Below are positions 1 to 5,993 of a stretch of 5,995 nucleotides of DNA, one piece after another. Position 1 is the stretch's first letter; each line of letters begins with the position of its first letter. The position numbers and the translations under genes were made by a program. A model generated the notes under the pieces. That model was not told the origin of the DNA, searched no databases, and was given only the letters and a program-made list of their open reading frames with translations. The DNA lies in IMG/VR virus record IMGVR_UViG_2695420739_000005, positions 1 to 5,995 of that record. One strand, written 5' to 3'. The stretch is from a virus. Lineage: Duplodnaviria > Heunggongvirae > Uroviricota > Caudoviricetes.

Positions 1-2036
1 CAACGGTTCAGGGTGTCCTGGGTGGCTTTGACCGGGGCAATCAGGTTTTTAAACCACTGCCACGCGGCCTGTAACTTTTCGCCCAGCCAGTCAAACACCG
101 GCTTCAGTGGCGTGAACAGTTCCCCCACCGGCGCAAATGCCGCTTTCAGCCCTTCAACCACACCGCCAAAGAATGCGCTGACAGGCTCCCAGTATTTACG
201 GATAAGCAACGCCCCGGCGACAATGGCGGCCACCACGGCCACAACCGGCCAGCTAATCGCCCCGATGGCGGTTATAACAGCACTGCTAACCGTCGTGAAG
301 ATTGCCCCCATTGCGCCTGCTGCCGCGATAATGGCATTGATGCCGGTGATAACCGGCCAGGCTACAAGACCAATGGCACCGATGATGCCAATAAGCGCCA
401 GCGCGCCACCGACAATGAGGCCGATGGTTGACGCCAGTGATTTGTTTTTCTGGATCCAGCCGTCGAGTTTTAACACATACTTTGTGGCCGTCTGAGTGAG
501 CTTACGCAGTGCGCCTTCCTGCTGGTCAAACAGGTCAGTCCCCACCGCCTCATAAGCGGACTGAAACTCCTTAAAGTCACCGCCGAGGTTATCCTGCATG
601 ATTTTAACTAGCTCTTCCGTTTTACCGTCCGAGGCTTTCAGCGTGGCGGTCAGCGTATCCAGTTTTCCGCTTGCTGCCGCTGCCAGTAAAACGTTCGCTG
701 ATTTCAGGGCTTCCTCACCAAAAATGGTTTTAAGGTATTCCCCCTTCTGAGACGTTCCCAGCTTATGCTTATCAAAGCTGGCCTGAATCTCTTTCAGAAT
801 GGTGAACAACGGACGCATATTTCCCTTTTTGTCCGAGGTTTTAACGCCAAGCTCTTTGAGTGCATCCCATGCTTTTCCAGTCGGTGCCTGTAATCGGGTG
901 ACAACGGCACTGCTACCCGTACCCGCCATTGACCCCCTGATGTTATTGTCATGCAGCACACCGGTCATGGCCGCTGCCTGCTCAAGACTTACACCTGCCG
1001 TCCTCGCAACCGGGCCGAGGTAAGTCAGTGCATCACTGAGTCCCTGAAAATCAGCCGCCGACTTATTCATCGTTGCCGACAACACGTCGCCCACATGGCT
1101 GACATCATCATTTGACAGTTGAAAGGATGCCTTAGTCCCCAGCAACAATTGCGCGTTTTCTTCCATCGACCGCTGGTTTGCCAGTGCCATATTCAGTGTG
1201 ACCGGCGTTGCTGCCTGAATAGCCGCAGCATCTCCACCCGCTTTCGCAATGATAATCTGTGCACCGGCTGCATCATCTGCCGAGGCTGCGGTATTGTCGC
1301 CGAGCTGGCGCGCCTGCTTGCGGAGTGCGGTCATTTCGGCGGAGTCTTTTGCCACTCCGAGCACGGCCTGCAATTCTGAGTTTTTCTGCGCAAACTCATA
1401 ACCGGGCATCAGCAGCTTAACTCCGGCCATCGTTCCCGCCGCCGCAATCCCCACACCGGCAGCGCCCACTGAGGCCATATTTCCGGCCAGTTCCTTGCCT
1501 GCCTGATAACGCTGTTTTACTGCGTTAAGTTTTGCCTGTTGCGCGCTGACACGCGCCAGCGCGTCACGCTGACGGTTAAGCTGTGCGGTGGTTTCACTGA
1601 TACGGTTTTTCAGTCCCTGCTCATCATGTGCAAGATTGCGGGTATTAATTCCCACAACGGCCAGTTCCCGCTGCTGGCGTTTAACGGAATCCGTCAGGCG
1701 GTTATATTTCGCCTGTAAGTCCTCCGCCGCACGCTTTGCGGATTCCAGCACTTTCGCCTGAGCACGTGTCGGACGTTCGGTGTTTTTAAACTGTGTGGCA
1801 AGGGCTTCGGCCTCCTGCCGTGCCTTTTCAAGTGCATGACCAGTCACGGCGAGCTGTGCACTGGTCTTGCGAAATCCCTCAATACGGGATGCCTGACCGT
1901 TCAGCTCGCGCAGTGATTTTTGTGTTTCCCGGATATCCCCCGACAGCGATTTGCTCGCTGTGCGGATGGATTTAAACGGGCGGGATGCCTGGTCAACAGC
2001 CCTGAGCAATACCTGTAATTTTACATTGTTACTCAT
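1..2036 (-). CDS. T: Tail tape measure protein (P2 gpT-like), 5' part only; 3' end runs off the left edge of the window
   Basis: Minus-strand ATG at 2034-2036 opens a frame that I read as MSNNVKLQVLLRAVDQASRPFKSIRTASKSL... and that appears to stay open to position 1; it is absent from the ORF track, consistent with running off the window edge. The translation has long Ala/Gln/Leu-rich coiled-coil-like stretches and Gly/Ala/Ile-rich hydrophobic segments typical of tape measure proteins. It sits directly downstream of E/E' as in P2 (FI-FII-E-E'-T). Plus-strand ORFs 13..495, 799..1023, 1119..1379 and 1793..1975 are antisense to it. Confidence 0.88.
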   Translation of the reverse strand, partial: MSNNVKLQVLLRAVDQASRPFKSIRTASKSLSGDIRETQKSLRELNGQASRIEGFRKTSAQLAVTGHALEKARQEAEALATQFKNTERPTRAQAKVLESAKRAAEDLQAKYNRLTDSVKRQQRELAVVGINTRNLAHDEQGLKNRISETTAQLNRQRDALARVSAQQAKLNAVKQRYQAGKELAGNMASVGAAGVGIAAAGTMAGVKLLMPGYEFAQKNSELQAVLGVAKDSAEMTALRKQARQLGDNTAASADDAAGAQIIIAKAGGDAAAIQAATPVTLNMALANQRSMEENAQLLLGTKASFQLSNDDVSHVGDVLSATMNKSAADFQGLSDALTYLGPVARTAGVSLEQAAAMTGVLHDNNIRGSMAGTGSSAVVTRLQAPTGKAWDALKELGVKTSDKKGNMRPLFTILKEIQASFDKHKLGTSQKGEYLKTIFGEEALKSANVLLAAAASGKLDTLTATLKASDGKTEELVKIMQDNLGGDFKEFQSAYEAVGTDLFDQQEGALRKLTQTATKYVLKLDGWIQKNKSLASTIGLIVGGALALIGIIGAIGLVAWPVITGINAIIAAAGAMGAIFTTVSSAVITAIGAISWPVVAVVAAIVAGALLIRKYWEPVSAFFGGVVEGLKAAFAPVGELFTPLKPVFDWLGEKLQAAWQWFKNLIAPVKATQDTLNR

Positions 2037-2456
2037 TCGTGTTTCCGCTTCGCCGGAGCGCCTTTTCGCGCCATGTGATGAGTTCGGTCAGGCTCATGGG
2101 ATACAGTTCTGATGGCGGCCAGTGAAATATCACTGCCACATCCGCCATCAGGTCATCGACCGAGAGATTTTTCGGAAACGTCACTGCACCGAGTTCGGCG
2201 ACAAAAAACCGACCACCTTACCGGCCAGCGCCACAAGGTCAGGCAGTTCCAGCGCGGCGACCTCCTGCTCGGTCAGCATCGGTGCCGTCATGCGAGGCAG
2301 CACTTTAATCAGTGCATCGACTTCGGAGTTTGCGACCGCAGCCAGACTGACACCGCGCAGCGTCCCCGCACTGGGTTTCATCAGCGTGACCTGTTCGATA
2401 ACCTGCTCACCACGCTTGACCGGATTGTCCAGGGTAATCACATTTTCTTTGTTCAT
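2029..2456 (-). CDS. E+E': gpE+E' fusion made by programmed -1 ribosomal frameshift (predicted 142 aa)
   Basis: Minus-strand slippery heptamer T_TTT_TTG at 2202-2208 lies in E codons 84-85 (F-L). Shifting -1 there opens a 57-codon extension (VAELGAVTFPKNLSVDDLMADVAVIFHWPPSELYPMSLTELITWREKALRRSGNTNE) ending at TAA 2029-2031. That stop overlaps the T start in the string ATGAGTAA. This is the same architecture as P2 E/E' and lambda G/GT. Confidence 0.75.
2181..2456 (-). CDS. E: Tail assembly chaperone gpE (zero-frame product, 91 aa)
   Basis: ORF-track protein MNKENVITLDNPVKRGEQVIEQVTLMKPSAGTLRGVSLAAV...GFLSPNSVQ, recognised as P2 gpE. Position between FII and T matches P2 synteny. Ends 21 codons after a slippery heptamer. 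Confidence 0.9.
   Translation of the reverse strand: MNKENVITLDNPVKRGEQVIEQVTLMKPSAGTLRGVSLAAVANSEVDALIKVLPRMTAPMLTEQEVAALELPDLVALAGKVVGFLSPNSVQ
2202..2208 (-). promoter_or_regulatory. Programmed -1 frameshift slippery site T_TTT_TTG
   Basis: Plus-strand caaaaaa at 2202-2208 is TTTTTTG on the coding (minus) strand, in the X_XXY_YYZ register relative to the E frame. Confidence 0.75.
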
Positions 2457-2512: not shown

Positions 2513-3031
2513 TCACAGGCCGATATTTCGGCGGTGTTGCTCCAGCCGGTCGACGCCGTTCACCTTCTCAATCATGTTGATGGTGTCGATTTCGACCAGC
2601 TCCTTACCGTCCATCGTCAGCCGGAAATAGGTGCAGATCACGGAGATTTTCGACTCGGTGTCTTCTCCCTGTTTACCCTCGCCGGTGTCGATTTCTTTCT
2701 GACGTCCACGCATGACCACCTCGACGGCCACCGTTTCGCCGGTATCGTCGCGCTGGTAAGAGCCTGCAAAACGAATCGGTACGGCATCCACACCGGTTGC
2801 GGCGTAAAGCTCCCAGATAACCGAATCCGGGAAGCCACCGAGCGACCACTCCATTGACAGCGCATCGTCATCAAGGCCGAGGTCTACCGGTGCGCTGCCA
2901 TTCATCCCCGCACCGCGATAGTTTTCGAGCTTACGGGTCAGTTTTGGTAGCGTGACGGACTTCGCGACGCCCTGATAGCTGTAGCCGTTCAGAAAGACGT
3001 TCATTAACTTGAGTTTGCGCGGCATTGCCAT
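2513..3031 (-). CDS. FII: Contractile tail tube protein (P2 gpFII-like)
   Basis: ORF-track protein MAMPRKLKLMNVFLNGYSYQGVAKSVTLPKLTRKLENYRGAG... (172 aa), recognised as P2 FII. Strong SD (TAAGGAG) 8 nt upstream of the ATG, immediately after the FI stop. Confidence 0.92.
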   Translation of the reverse strand: MAMPRKLKLMNVFLNGYSYQGVAKSVTLPKLTRKLENYRGAGMNGSAPVDLGLDDDALSMEWSLGGFPDSVIWELYAATGVDAVPIRFAGSYQRDDTGETVAVEVVMRGRQKEIDTGEGKQGEDTESKISVICTYFRLTMDGKELVEIDTINMIEKVNGVDRLEQHRRNIGL

Positions 3032-3043
3032 CGGTCAGGCTCC

Positions 3044-4234
3044 TTAATTGCTGTTAACCGAGGTGACCAGATTTGCCAGGTATTTATCGGTAATACGCTG
3101 GCGCAGGGTCAGGTTTTCAAGAGGAGGTACCGGTGTATAGTCGTAGTCGATATACAGTTTTCCGGCCTTGAGGGTTTCCGCATCGTTGGATTCTTCGCTG
3201 AACCAGCAGGTCGCATCCACGATATAACCGTTTGTTTTCAGCTCACGGAATTTGGCATTGATGCCGTCAACGATGTCGCGAATCAGCGTTGCGGTGATGG
3301 GCTTGTCCACCGCCCACATGTGCGCCTCAGCCATCGTGTCGGCCAGCACCTGCGCGGTGCGGGTGTAGTTTTCAAAAAGGAACAGCGGGTCATCAGAGCA
3401 GGTACGGTTACCCCAGAATCGGAAACCGTCGCGGCGAATCAGCGTAGTGACGCCTGACTCGTTAAGCAGGTCAGCATCGGTGCCGGACTCCTGCAAATCC
3501 CAGAATACAGATGCGCTGATGCCGGTAACACCGTTTACCCCGACGTTGGACAGCGTTTTATGCCAGCCCTGCTCCTGGTCGATTTTAGCGCGCAGACCCA
3601 GCGCACGGGCGGTGGCATACGCGGTGGCGGTGGTACTGGCAACCGTATCCCATGCGAGGAAATCCGGCCAGATGACCATCAGCTCACGCTGGCTGAAATT
3701 CTGGCGGTAGGCTTTCACCTCGGAAATGGTCTTACAGCCCCACGCGCTGATATATCCGAAAGCGCGCAGCTTCTGACAGACGGATGCCAGTGCAATAGCC
3801 ACCTCTTTGGTATCCAGTCCCGGCACACCGAGAATACGCGGTTTAACACCGGTTACCGACTCCGCCGCCAGCAGGGCTTTCAGTCCGGTGTACTGACCGT
3901 TTTCGTCAGTGGTGCCGATGATATTGGAAACGGTCTGCGCGAGTTTCGTTTCCTCGTCGTCGCCGGTGCCGTCTTCCACACGCACGACAACGGTGACCGG
4001 TTTTGACTGGTCGGCGATAGCCTGCAACGATGCCGCCAGCGTGCCTTTTTTACCGGCCTTTGCAATTGCGCTTTGCACATTGGTAATCAGCACCGGTTTA
4101 TTGAGGGGGAAGGTTTCCGCATCCGCATCGCTGGCCGTGCAGACCATGCCGACAATGGCAGTGGATACAGTGGAAATGACGCGGGTGCCGTCGTTAATCT
4201 CCAGCACCTGCACGCCGTGATGATAGTCACTCAT
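3044..4234 (-). CDS. FI: Contractile tail sheath protein (P2 gpFI-like)
   Basis: ORF-track protein MSDYHHGVQVLEINDGTRVISTVSTAIVGMVCTASDADAETFPLNKPVLITNVQ... (396 aa), recognised as P2 FI. GGAG about 9 nt upstream of the ATG. Plus-strand ORFs 3447..3710, 3560..4006 and 3909..4220 and minus-strand ORF 3880..4080 are out-of-frame or antisense artefacts. Confidence 0.93.
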   Translation of the reverse strand: MSDYHHGVQVLEINDGTRVISTVSTAIVGMVCTASDADAETFPLNKPVLITNVQSAIAKAGKKGTLAASLQAIADQSKPVTVVVRVEDGTGDDEETKLAQTVSNIIGTTDENGQYTGLKALLAAESVTGVKPRILGVPGLDTKEVAIALASVCQKLRAFGYISAWGCKTISEVKAYRQNFSQRELMVIWPDFLAWDTVASTTATAYATARALGLRAKIDQEQGWHKTLSNVGVNGVTGISASVFWDLQESGTDADLLNESGVTTLIRRDGFRFWGNRTCSDDPLFLFENYTRTAQVLADTMAEAHMWAVDKPITATLIRDIVDGINAKFRELKTNGYIVDATCWFSEESNDAETLKAGKLYIDYDYTPVPPLENLTLRQRITDKYLANLVTSVNSN

Positions 4235-4293
4235 CCGTTTAACTCCGTGGTTAATGGGTGTGTGGTATTTTCAGTTGTGCCGGAGATATCAGG

Positions 4294-4887
4294 CTATTTG
4301 TCCCGGTTGGCTAAGGGATGACACAATTTATTCTTTGCCGCTGATGAGGGGAATTTTTTATAGAGCGTGGACAGGCCAATATCAAAAATCAGCGCCACAC
4401 GTTGACGAGATTCCCCCGCAGCCAGCAACCGTCCGACCTGCTCCCACTCACTCGTGGTGAGTTTCGGTCGTCTGCCACCAATACGACCTTTGGCTCTGGC
4501 CGCTTCCAGTCCGGCGCGTGTCCGCTCGACAATGAGTTCTCGCTCCATTTCAGCCAGGGCACCCATCACATGAAAGAAAAAACGCCCCATCGGCGTGCTG
4601 GTATCAATAGCATCCGTCAGGCTGCGAAAATTAACGCCGCGTTCGCGCAGTTCCTCAACCAGAATGACCAGATGCCGCATACTACGCCCCAGCCTGTCCA
4701 GCTTCCAGACTACCAGAGTGTCACCTGCTGATAATGTTCTGAGCAGCTTTTTCAGTCCCGGTCGGTCGGACTTCGTGCCGCTGATTTTATCCTCAAAAAT
4801 CAGCTCACATCCTGCGCACTCCAGCGCGTTACGCTGCAATTCCGTGTTCTGGTCATTTGTTGATACACGAACATAACCTATATGCAT
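4294..4887 (-). CDS. Site-specific serine DNA invertase (Gin/Hin/Cin/Pin, Din family)
   Basis: 197 aa. N-terminus MHIGYVRVSTNDQNTELQRNAL carries the catalytic-serine motif (YVRVSTxDQ) of resolvase/invertase catalytic domains. Also has the VVWKLDRLGRS and FFHVMGALAEMERELIVERT motifs and a C-terminal HTH region (GRRPKLT...LSTLYKKF). Sits beside an invertible tail-fibre cassette. Confidence 0.9.
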   Translation of the reverse strand: MHIGYVRVSTNDQNTELQRNALECAGCELIFEDKISGTKSDRPGLKKLLRTLSAGDTLVVWKLDRLGRSMRHLVILVEELRERGVNFRSLTDAIDTSTPMGRFFFHVMGALAEMERELIVERTRAGLEAARAKGRIGGRRPKLTTSEWEQVGRLLAAGESRQRVALIFDIGLSTLYKKFPSSAAKNKLCHPLANRDK

Positions 4888-5048
4888 AAAAATCCCTATA
4901 AAAACAGAATAATGACACAGAATTATCTATATATGTACAAGCGGACAAGACTATGGAGCACTCAATTACAATAATCTTGCAGGATAAGAATATTTACTGA
5001 TAGTGGATACATAGCCCACTTAGCATTCCCATGTGAATCAATTAAGTA

Positions 5049-5057
5049 TGGTAAGAT
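5049..5057 (+). promoter_or_regulatory. Candidate extended -10 promoter element (TGgTAAGAT) for the cargo ORF
   Basis: TG-n-TAAGAT lies about 30 nt upstream of the ATG at 5086. No convincing -35 was found, so this is weak. Confidence 0.25.
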
Positions 5058-5085
5058 ATGTTGACCTCAATAAAAGGAAAATCTG

Positions 5086-5403
5086 ATGAACATCGATACC
5101 AATAAAAAAACTACCACACTGAAATATTTTGTCGAAGCCTATCCAGAGAGAATCACTGCTCAAGCGTGGGAACGCCTGGTCAATGAAATTGGTGATTTAA
5201 AAGAAGTTTATGGATATATCGCCTTTCTGCATGACGATGGGTATCTTACAGGAAAGGTAATCTTTGATGGTTCTCCTGAAAGTATTGATGGATGGAGTGT
5301 AGATACTGACTCTCTAAGGATTACATCACAAGGTTATCATTATTGGAAAAAATCAAACCCTACAACACAAGGGAGTAGCGGAATCCTCAGAAGGAACAGA
5401 TAA
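5086..5403 (+). CDS. Hypothetical protein, 105 aa, unknown function (cargo gene in phage hotspot)
   Basis: ORF MNIDTNKKTTTLKYFVEAYPERITAQAWERLVNEIGDLKEVYGYIAFLHDDGYLTGKVIFDGS...; SD AAGGA at 5074-5078 with a 7 nt spacer to the ATG. It is the only ORF in the AT-rich island, is hydrophilic with no obvious transmembrane segment, and is followed by a strong hairpin at 5411-5440. I cannot assign it to a named family with confidence. Confidence 0.6.
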   Translation: MNIDTNKKTTTLKYFVEAYPERITAQAWERLVNEIGDLKEVYGYIAFLHDDGYLTGKVIFDGSPESIDGWSVDTDSLRITSQGYHYWKKSNPTTQGSSGILRRNR

Positions 5404-5410
5404 CTAATAA

Positions 5411-5440
5411 AGATGGTAGCACCATTTGGTGTTACCATCT
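5411..5440. terminator. Stem-loop (13 bp stem with one G-U pair, 4 nt loop), possible bidirectional terminator after the cargo ORF
   Basis: agatggtagcacc-attt-ggtgttaccatct starts 8 nt after the cargo stop codon. It is flanked by A-rich sequence on the 5' side (T-rich for a minus-strand transcript) and a weaker T content on the 3' side. Confidence 0.45.
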
Positions 5441-5529
5441 TAAAATATACCGTGACAATCAGCACTTTCCATTTTTATCTAACAATCAATACTAAAACAT
5501 TCCCTTCTTTCAACATCATATTTAACCGA

Positions 5530-5555
5530 TTCCATAAAACGTTGGTTTGGGAGAA
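5530..5555. other. Invertase crossover site (gix/cix/hix-like, 26 bp, imperfect dyad)
   Basis: TTCCATAAAACG-TT-GGTTTGGGAGAA. It has the AAAC..GGTTT core and TTC...GAA ends characteristic of Din-family crossover sites, and matches about 18 of 26 positions against Mu gixL as I recall it. It sits exactly where the tail-fibre variable reading frame begins. Confidence 0.7.
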
Positions 5556-5993
5556 GGCTCTGCATTACCTGTTGGTGTCCCTGTTCCGTGGCCTTCAGCT
5601 ACGCCGCCAACAGGCTGGCTGAAATGCAATGGCGCTGCCTTTGATAAGGTTAAATATCCCCGTCTTGCTACAGCATATCCATCAGGGAAACTACCTGATC
5701 TCCGCGGTGAGTTTATTCGTGGCTGGGATGATGGGCGCGGCATTGATACAGGGCGTGCTTTATTGAGTATTCAGAGTGATGAAGTCAGAAAGCTCGCATT
5801 AAAATACTGGGGACCAGCTTCAAACAGTTCACCATCAAAAACATTTGCACTCAGCGACAGTGCCGGTGGCGGGTTGTACACGGATGGAATAAGTCAGGCA
5901 AGCGGTGGGATTATCAACGCTTTTCAGCTCCCTGGCGGTAACGAAACCCGCCCACGAAATGTTGCATTTAACTATATCGTGAGGGCTGCATAA
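5547..5993 (+). CDS. Alternative tail-fibre C-terminal variable segment (silent cassette, Hv'/Sv'-like); no independent start
   Basis: The frame is open from 5538, just after an in-frame TAA at 5535-5537 inside the crossover site; the track start at 5547 is a TTG. The translation begins with the ...LPVGVPVPWPSATPPTGW... motif found at the constant/variable junction of Mu S and P2 H-type fibres and ends with NVAFNYIVRAA, the conserved C-terminal signature of these fibres. Orientation is opposite to the other tail genes, as expected for the unexpressed arm of an invertible segment. Confidence 0.8.
   Translation: MGEGSALPVGVPVPWPSATPPTGWLKCNGAAFDKVKYPRLATAYPSGKLPDLRGEFIRGWDDGRGIDTGRALLSIQSDEVRKLALKYWGPASNSSPSKTFALSDSAGGGLYTDGISQASGGIINAFQLPGGNETRPRNVAFNYIVRAA

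Follow-up and report, generated by a model that had tools for sequence, protein, structure and literature searches.

Phage P2 carries a lysogenic-conversion gene, fun(Z), whose 528-aa product (NP_046777.1) is annotated as blocking T5. The gene lies between G and FI on the strand opposite the tail genes. Vassallo et al. described this locus as a second defence-enriched locus of P2-like phages (PMC9519451), and a 2026 NAR study named the Z/fun locus and described a defence hotspot within the tail genes (PMC13586616). The lambda-type morons (bor and lom; Hendrix and colleagues) are a second group of described systems. These are extra genes of atypical composition, with a promoter and a 3' stem-loop of their own, and they separate genes that are direct neighbours in related phages.

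The window (the whole stretch of 5,995 nucleotides that was analysed) is the tail region of a P2-like (Peduovirus) E. coli prophage. A first-pass annotation had singled out one small open reading frame, here called ORF105, as AT-rich cargo in a slot equivalent to P2 Z/fun. The features of the window are listed below; L001 is a near-identical prophage of E. coli EC812A1.

Tape-measure gene, partial, minus strand
2029-2184, minus strand: E' part, 51-aa ORF overlapping 2181-2456
2181-2456, minus strand: E, 91-aa ORF
2513-3031, minus strand: tail tube gene FII
3044-4234, minus strand: tail sheath gene FI
4235-4330, minus strand: P2 pF late-promoter region, by alignment with the annotated pF of P2 (NC_001895); left boundary of the accessory slot
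4294-4887, minus strand, divergent from ORF105: serine DNA invertase, 197 aa (Pfam Resolvase, E 2.9e-52; HTH_7, E 4.7e-13)
4888-5536, strand not applicable: AT-rich inserted island of ~645 bp, lying between the start codon of the invertase gene and the crossover site
5049-5057, plus strand: predicted extended -10 promoter-like element TGGTAAGAT, conserved among homologous loci
5074-5078, plus strand: Shine-Dalgarno AAGGA, 7 nt before the ATG, read from the sequence
5086-5403, plus strand: ORF105, 105 aa, ATG start
5410-5441, plus strand: 3' stem-loop, 14-bp stem including one G.U pair, 4-nt loop
5503-5516, plus strand: degenerate copy of a crossover half-site, CCTTCTTTCAACAT (compare CCTTCTCCCAAACC), seen as inverted repeat I14 and by direct reading
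5530-5555, strand not applicable: Gin/Cin/Pin-type crossover site TTCCATAAAACG-TT-GGTTTGGGAGAA, conserved with phage pro483
5547-5993, plus strand: silent, promoterless alternative tail-fibre C-terminal segment (Pfam Collar, E 8.7e-15; L001 annotation)

As the first-pass annotation had stated, ORF105 runs opposite to the tail genes: the complete tail genes (E, FII, and FI) and the invertase gene are all on the minus strand, and the only plus-strand neighbour of ORF105 in the window is the tail-fibre tip fragment at 5547-5993. It is also the sole gene of the AT-rich island, where the GC content is 0.335 to 0.39 (~4800-5600) compared to 0.52 to 0.60 in the tail genes. The neighbouring invertase is labelled recombinase, DNA invertase, or pinE in related records. 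A tRNA scan found none, and an Rfam scan of 4700-5700 gave one chance sub-threshold match only. The two small ORFs at 2181-2456 and 2029-2184 correspond to gene E of P2 and to the E' portion of E+E', a product of -1 frameshifting according to the NC_001895 annotation; this is an ordinary P2 feature.

The gene order in L001, the P2 reference, and the conservation of pF placed ORF105 between the tail-fibre assembly gene G and FI. Given that Fun(Z) of P2 occupies the opposite strand between the same two genes and that pF and its Ogr site are conserved just to the left, the proposed equivalence of the slot to P2 Z/fun held up. The annotated Ogr-binding site aligns to ~4303-4329, which is inside the 3' coding end of the invertase gene; the final dozen or so invertase codons (4294-4330, minus strand) extend into the conserved pF region. 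Judged by gene order, Fun(Z) is the closest positional analogue of ORF105. Both are single genes of non-essential cargo on the strand opposite the tail genes, with the tail-fibre module before them and the pF/FI operon after. The two proteins differ in size (528 versus 105 aa) and showed no significant similarity in a single BLASTP comparison (E 0.13), and in the case of ORF105, unlike that of Fun(Z), the slot also holds an invertase gene and an invertible tail-fibre segment. T5 exclusion is an annotated feature of Fun(Z); ORF105 is not known to confer this or any other phenotype.

Comparison with phage pro483 showed that window positions ~4890-5536 stand in place of ~50 bp, which is all that separates the invertase start codon from the crossover site in that phage. 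To survey the island, a 1,251-bp query containing both flanks was compared to all complete E. coli genomes. Of these, ~2,195 had a related invertase or fibre flank, and only 24 had the island. The two flanks were directly adjacent in the sampled rows that matched both, including e14 pinE of K-12. In other E. coli loci, the flank matches were ~660 bp apart over the 1,251-bp query, which indicated that the island was absent there. The island is a rare insertion into a normally tight junction. The claim that ORF105 sits in a hotspot was therefore only partly upheld. The G-FI slot as a whole is defence-enriched according to the literature, but the survey of the invertase-to-crossover-site slot in related E. 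coli loci found it nearly always empty, and so this exact point is not a recurrent hotspot.

The crossover site at 5530-5555 has an inverted partner ~1.9 kb away, within the tail-fibre gene of L001. The position of this partner puts ORF105 outside the invertible segment, between the segment and the invertase gene. Matches in many other genomes stop precisely at window positions 5556-5557, and this same prophage is found in three ST2747 assemblies (loci L028 and L029), which differ in the orientation of the segment but not in the place of ORF105. Because both orientations occur, a Gin/Pin-type system can evidently still invert its segment when 645 bp have been inserted between the invertase gene and the crossover site. 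As a result of this insertion, the invertase gene is ~645 bp further from the crossover site and its upstream region is now within the AT-rich island. The degenerate half-site at 5503-5516 is ~30 bp to the left of the real crossover site; it may be a scar of island acquisition, or it may have arisen by chance.

The dN/dS value of ORF105 was 0.20 in a comparison with the Citrobacter freundii copy (75% amino-acid identity), and more distant copies have proteins that are still 62 to 67% identical even though synonymous sites are saturated. Thus, ORF105 is a genuine gene and not a chance ORF. The window and the Citrobacter locus are alike in DNA sequence only over ~5010-5405, which corresponds to the promoter region plus the ORF, and the signals around the gene are conserved as well. 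A TGnTAAAAT sequence is found 28 to 31 nt before the ATG in four divergent loci (the window, L003, L008, and L013), and the Pantoea locus L018 has a perfect extended -10, TGGTATAAT. A generic two-hexamer promoter scan did not call the conserved extended -10 of ORF105. The Shine-Dalgarno sequence that had been noted upstream of the ATG was confirmed at 5074-5078, and AAAAGGAG is kept in homologous loci. Folding against shuffled sequences likewise confirmed that the flanking hairpin at 5410-5441 is a strong stem-loop (dG of -22.5 kcal/mol and z of -7.3, with 0 of 200 shuffles folding equally well). It has no U-tract on the plus strand, and a terminator scan did not score it as an intrinsic terminator. 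Most homologous loci have a 3' stem-loop; the one in L013 is a canonical terminator, followed by TTTTATTTT.

With a promoter-like element, a 3' stem-loop, and foreign base composition together, ORF105 would fit the classical definition of a moron. The gene is absent where its flanking genes are adjacent, as in pro483 and in all but 24 of the ~2,195 E. coli genomes, and its base composition is atypical, as described above. The sequence features indicate that ORF105 is a horizontally acquired single-gene cassette with predicted signals of its own. The likeness to lambda-type morons extends to position, since distant relatives of ORF105 occupy a bor-like site in the gap between lysis and terminase genes on the opposite strand. 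It does not extend to the products: those of bor and lom are envelope proteins, whereas ORF105 is predicted to be cytoplasmic. Our reading of its sequence revealed no signal-peptide-like or transmembrane stretch, and its GRAVY value is -0.67.

The first-pass annotation had recognised no characterised defence family in ORF105 and had reported a weak impression of a winged helix. The first point was substantiated by PADLOC, which returned 0 families for ORF105. Searches against Pfam, PHROGs, PADLOC, and NCBIfam gave nothing above threshold, and profile searches against PDB sequences gave noise only, mostly antibody heavy chains. The winged-helix impression was borne out by an AlphaFold model, fold searches, and sub-threshold matches to the Pfam family YjcQ (PF09639). 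AlphaFold2 confidence rose only with the addition of distant members: six close sequences gave a pLDDT of 49.8, and 14 sequences that included distant members found by HMM gave 83.9 (pTM of 0.74; four of the five models at 74 or above). The structural model is built on only 14 sequences. The predicted structure has helices at residues 5-18, 25-35, and 38-50, beta strands of a wing near 58-60 and 70-72, a helix at 81-90, and a disordered tail at 95-105. Thus, ORF105 is predicted to consist of a winged-helix domain of ~90 aa, an S/G/T linker, and a basic C-terminal tail, ILRRNR.

Based on the model, the closest structural relatives of ORF105 would be YjcQ and small PadR/MarR winged-helix proteins. 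Foldseek E-values against small PadR-like/MarR proteins were 0.025 and above. The suggested Pfam check yielded a YjcQ signal but no hit above threshold. Specifically, ORF105 matched at E 0.12 and 13.1 bits compared to a gathering threshold of 23.3, and sub-threshold matches were found in 5 of the 14 family members (best E 0.0047). By sequence, then, ORF105 falls outside YjcQ, and its predicted model has a YjcQ-like winged-helix fold. Bacillus subtilis YjcQ (PDB 2HGC) belongs to a distant, Gram-positive family that is itself without known function, and it lacks the linker and basic tail of ORF105. The literature offered nothing informative for YjcQ or for the RefSeq accession. The MarR and PadR Pfam models gave no match at E<=1 in any of the 14 family members. 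ORF105 also differs from PadR-s2/MarR regulators in that its helix 4 is short (81-90, ~10 residues) and theirs is a long dimerisation helix, in its net acidic domain, in lacking Pfam membership, and in that no operator was found in 4888-5085.

Residues conserved in the family include P20, L48, W70, and G83, which are invariant in 20 sequences, and R78 of the wing, which does not vary among 14 members and hardly varies among 20. Residues 1-92 contain 10 K/R and 14 D/E, and pI values in the family range from 4.5 to 7. The putative recognition helix (helix 3) has one basic residue only. Because the domain is net acidic and helix 3 is poorly basic, ORF105 is atypical as a sequence-specific DNA binder, and both features speak against a simple repressor. 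In ~9 of 20 members, from both subfamilies, the flexible linker is followed by a C-terminal G-[ILM]-[LI]-R-R-x-R motif, and this basic tail may contact nucleic acid, serve as a docking peptide, or act as a degron.

Many MarR/PadR regulators bind the intergenic region that they share with a divergently transcribed gene. ORF105 (5086-5403, plus strand) and the invertase gene (4294-4887, minus strand) form a divergent pair, the upstream region of the invertase gene is inside the island, and the predicted fold is a winged helix. ORF105 could thus be a local regulator that binds the shared 198-bp intergenic region and controls the invertase and, hence, tail-fibre switching. We consider this very doubtful. 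An inverted-repeat search of 4888-5085 found no convincing operator-like palindrome in the ORF105 promoter region, inversion occurs with ORF105 present, more than 2,000 E. coli genomes have related invertase loci without ORF105, and none of the other homologue contexts that were read over more than ~1.3 kb contains an invertase gene.

The family to which ORF105 belongs is small and is found on mobile elements. Among 1.84 billion representatives, an exhaustive HMM search found 13 hits, and iterated word-indexed searches of 5.8 billion clusters levelled off at ~20 clusters; a third iteration added no new members, which indicated that the family was saturated. All of the homologues are from Enterobacterales (E. 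coli, Citrobacter, Pantoea, Cronobacter, Lonsdalea, and Kosakonia), and every one is annotated as hypothetical. Among 50,697 phage records, tblastn detected nothing that matched the ORF105 protein.

The genomic contexts of the homologues are varied. In two different Citrobacter prophage types, the homologue is at the prophage end and convergent with a tail-fibre assembly gene; in one of these types, it adjoins DinI, S24-peptidase, SIR2_2, or HipA_2/DUF3037 cargo. In L013, the homologue lies between a tail-fibre assembly gene and the sheath gene, which is the Z/fun position, and there is no invertase gene. In lambdoid prophages of Cronobacter, Lonsdalea, and Pantoea, the position is that of lambda bor: the homologue is flanked by the lysis cassette and the small terminase gene and runs on the opposite strand. 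One homologue (P0006) points the same way as the structural genes of a satellite-like element, and two have no phage genes within 6 to 7 kb: P0007, which is chromosomal and adjoins DUF2442, and P0023, which is near a TraI relaxase gene. What the contexts share is an accessory gene that is mobile and stands alone, with no invertase link and no fixed partner.

Homologues adjoin tail-fibre assembly genes in four phage backgrounds, which would suit a virion or tail-fibre accessory protein. A structural role of this kind, like the idea that the ORF is spurious, is extremely improbable. The gene is on the opposite strand, has its own predicted sigma-70-type promoter, encodes a predicted winged helix, and is absent from nearly all related phages; its other contexts are the lysis/terminase gap or lie outside phages. 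In the case of a spurious ORF, the dN/dS value of 0.20 argues against it.

The variable cargo at the C. freundii prophage ends (L003-L007, ~3800-7750) that adjoins the homologue includes an S24 peptidase with DinI, HipA_2 with DUF3037, SIR2_2 with a 686-aa protein, SRAP, and an IS element, and this region resembles an island of defence or accessory genes located at the edge of the prophage. A link to DinI was considered and rejected; DinI precedes the gene in L003, but the 83-aa gene upstream in L008 is unrelated. A 95-aa protein on another contig (P0008 in L022) joins an invertase N-terminus (~55 aa) to residues ~28-68 of a homologue resembling P0004 at a shared WK. It was rejected as a functional link to an invertase, as the contig is 1.3 kb long and adjoins an IS (rve) transposase gene, and P0008 is probably a rearrangement or assembly chimera.

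The Citrobacter copies beside SIR2_2 and HipA_2/DUF3037 cargo in variable prophage ends, together with the defence enrichment of the Z/fun-equivalent slot (PMC9519451; PMC13586616), favour the idea that ORF105 is a single-gene anti-phage or superinfection-exclusion protein that binds protein instead of DNA. A protein of the invader, or a host factor that the phage needs, would be bound by the acidic winged-helix surface or by the ILRRNR peptide. The acidic domain, the poorly basic helix 3, and the G-[ILM]-[LI]-R-R-x-R tail after a flexible linker in ~9 of 20 members all agree with this idea. We regard it as possible but on the unlikely side, since PADLOC gave no hit, many genes in such slots are not defence genes, and the family is too small and too poorly sampled for any enrichment beside defence systems to be assessed.

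The presence of the family on several unrelated mobile elements, including the satellite-like element and the region that adjoins the TraI relaxase gene, raises a different idea. ORF105, which is small, acidic, and stand-alone, could be a counter-defence or host-modulating factor that aids the phage on infection or induction and does not protect the lysogen; an acidic winged-helix inhibitor of a host defence or nucleoid protein is an example. A constitutive promoter would also give early expression on infection. However, a late-region, opposite-strand position is typical of lysogenic-conversion genes, and the family and profile searches gave no similarity to known anti-defence proteins. This idea therefore seems quite improbable.

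The general account that we favour, and to which we give about an even chance, is that ORF105 is a moron expressed in the lysogen and that its product is a small winged-helix protein that stands alone and acts by binding. The cassette, with a predicted sigma-70 extended -10 promoter, a Shine-Dalgarno sequence, a 105-codon ORF, and a 3' stem-loop, would have entered a P2-like prophage at the G-FI slot, with the gene for the tail-fibre invertase on one side and the crossover site on the other. Because ORF105 is on the strand opposite the Ogr-dependent late operons and has its own predicted promoter, we infer that it would be expressed from the resident prophage independently of late activation. 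The product would be a cytoplasmic, slightly acidic protein with a winged-helix domain of the MarR/PadR/YjcQ type at residues ~5-90, and it would most plausibly work in a stoichiometric manner, by binding. Contacts with nucleic acid, or else with a protein partner, would be made by the wing (where Arg78 is invariant), the N-terminal part of helix 3, and the basic tail. Such binding may alter gene expression or block a developmental step of an incoming element, which would produce a lysogenic-conversion or exclusion phenotype.

Several observations count against this moron account. The searches suggested no functional link based on homology, with no significant PADLOC, NCBIfam, or PHROGs hits. 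The predicted protein is net acidic, with a poorly basic helix 3, and has no long dimerisation helix; the 3' hairpin has no U-tract, and the ORF105 promoter region has no convincing palindrome. In addition, the P0006 gene runs with the structural genes of its element, and P0007 and P0023 are apparently outside phage contexts. The first-pass annotation had put ORF105 forward as a candidate defence, exclusion, or regulatory protein. It is a legitimate candidate, but defence is only one hypothesis among several because homologues also occupy other accessory positions, and two of them apparently lie outside phages.

A bolder idea is that ORF105 founds an unrecognised single-gene family of anti-phage or exclusion proteins. 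The members would combine an acidic winged helix with a basic docking peptide, would move as 400-bp cassettes between the moron sites of unrelated Enterobacterales phages, would be expressed in lysogens, and would act by an undescribed binding mechanism. We judge this unlikely. If an exclusion or conversion phenotype is real, then the locus would represent a very compact (105 aa) new family of prophage accessory functions at the P2 Z/fun hotspot, and a minimal 400-bp promoter-plus-ORF cassette that moves between the classic moron sites of unrelated phages. With no phenotype, ORF105 would be one among many hypothetical cargo genes of prophages. ORF105 is a legitimate but not exceptional candidate for phage challenge; prophage morons are a known kind, and the protein family is uncharacterised.

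One annotation in the family deserves comment. The Pantoea homologue in L018 (7001-7393) is annotated with a 33-aa N-terminal extension. Its annotated start is probably wrong because the extended -10 sequence TGGTATAAT is inside the extension and the family alignment begins at an internal Met.
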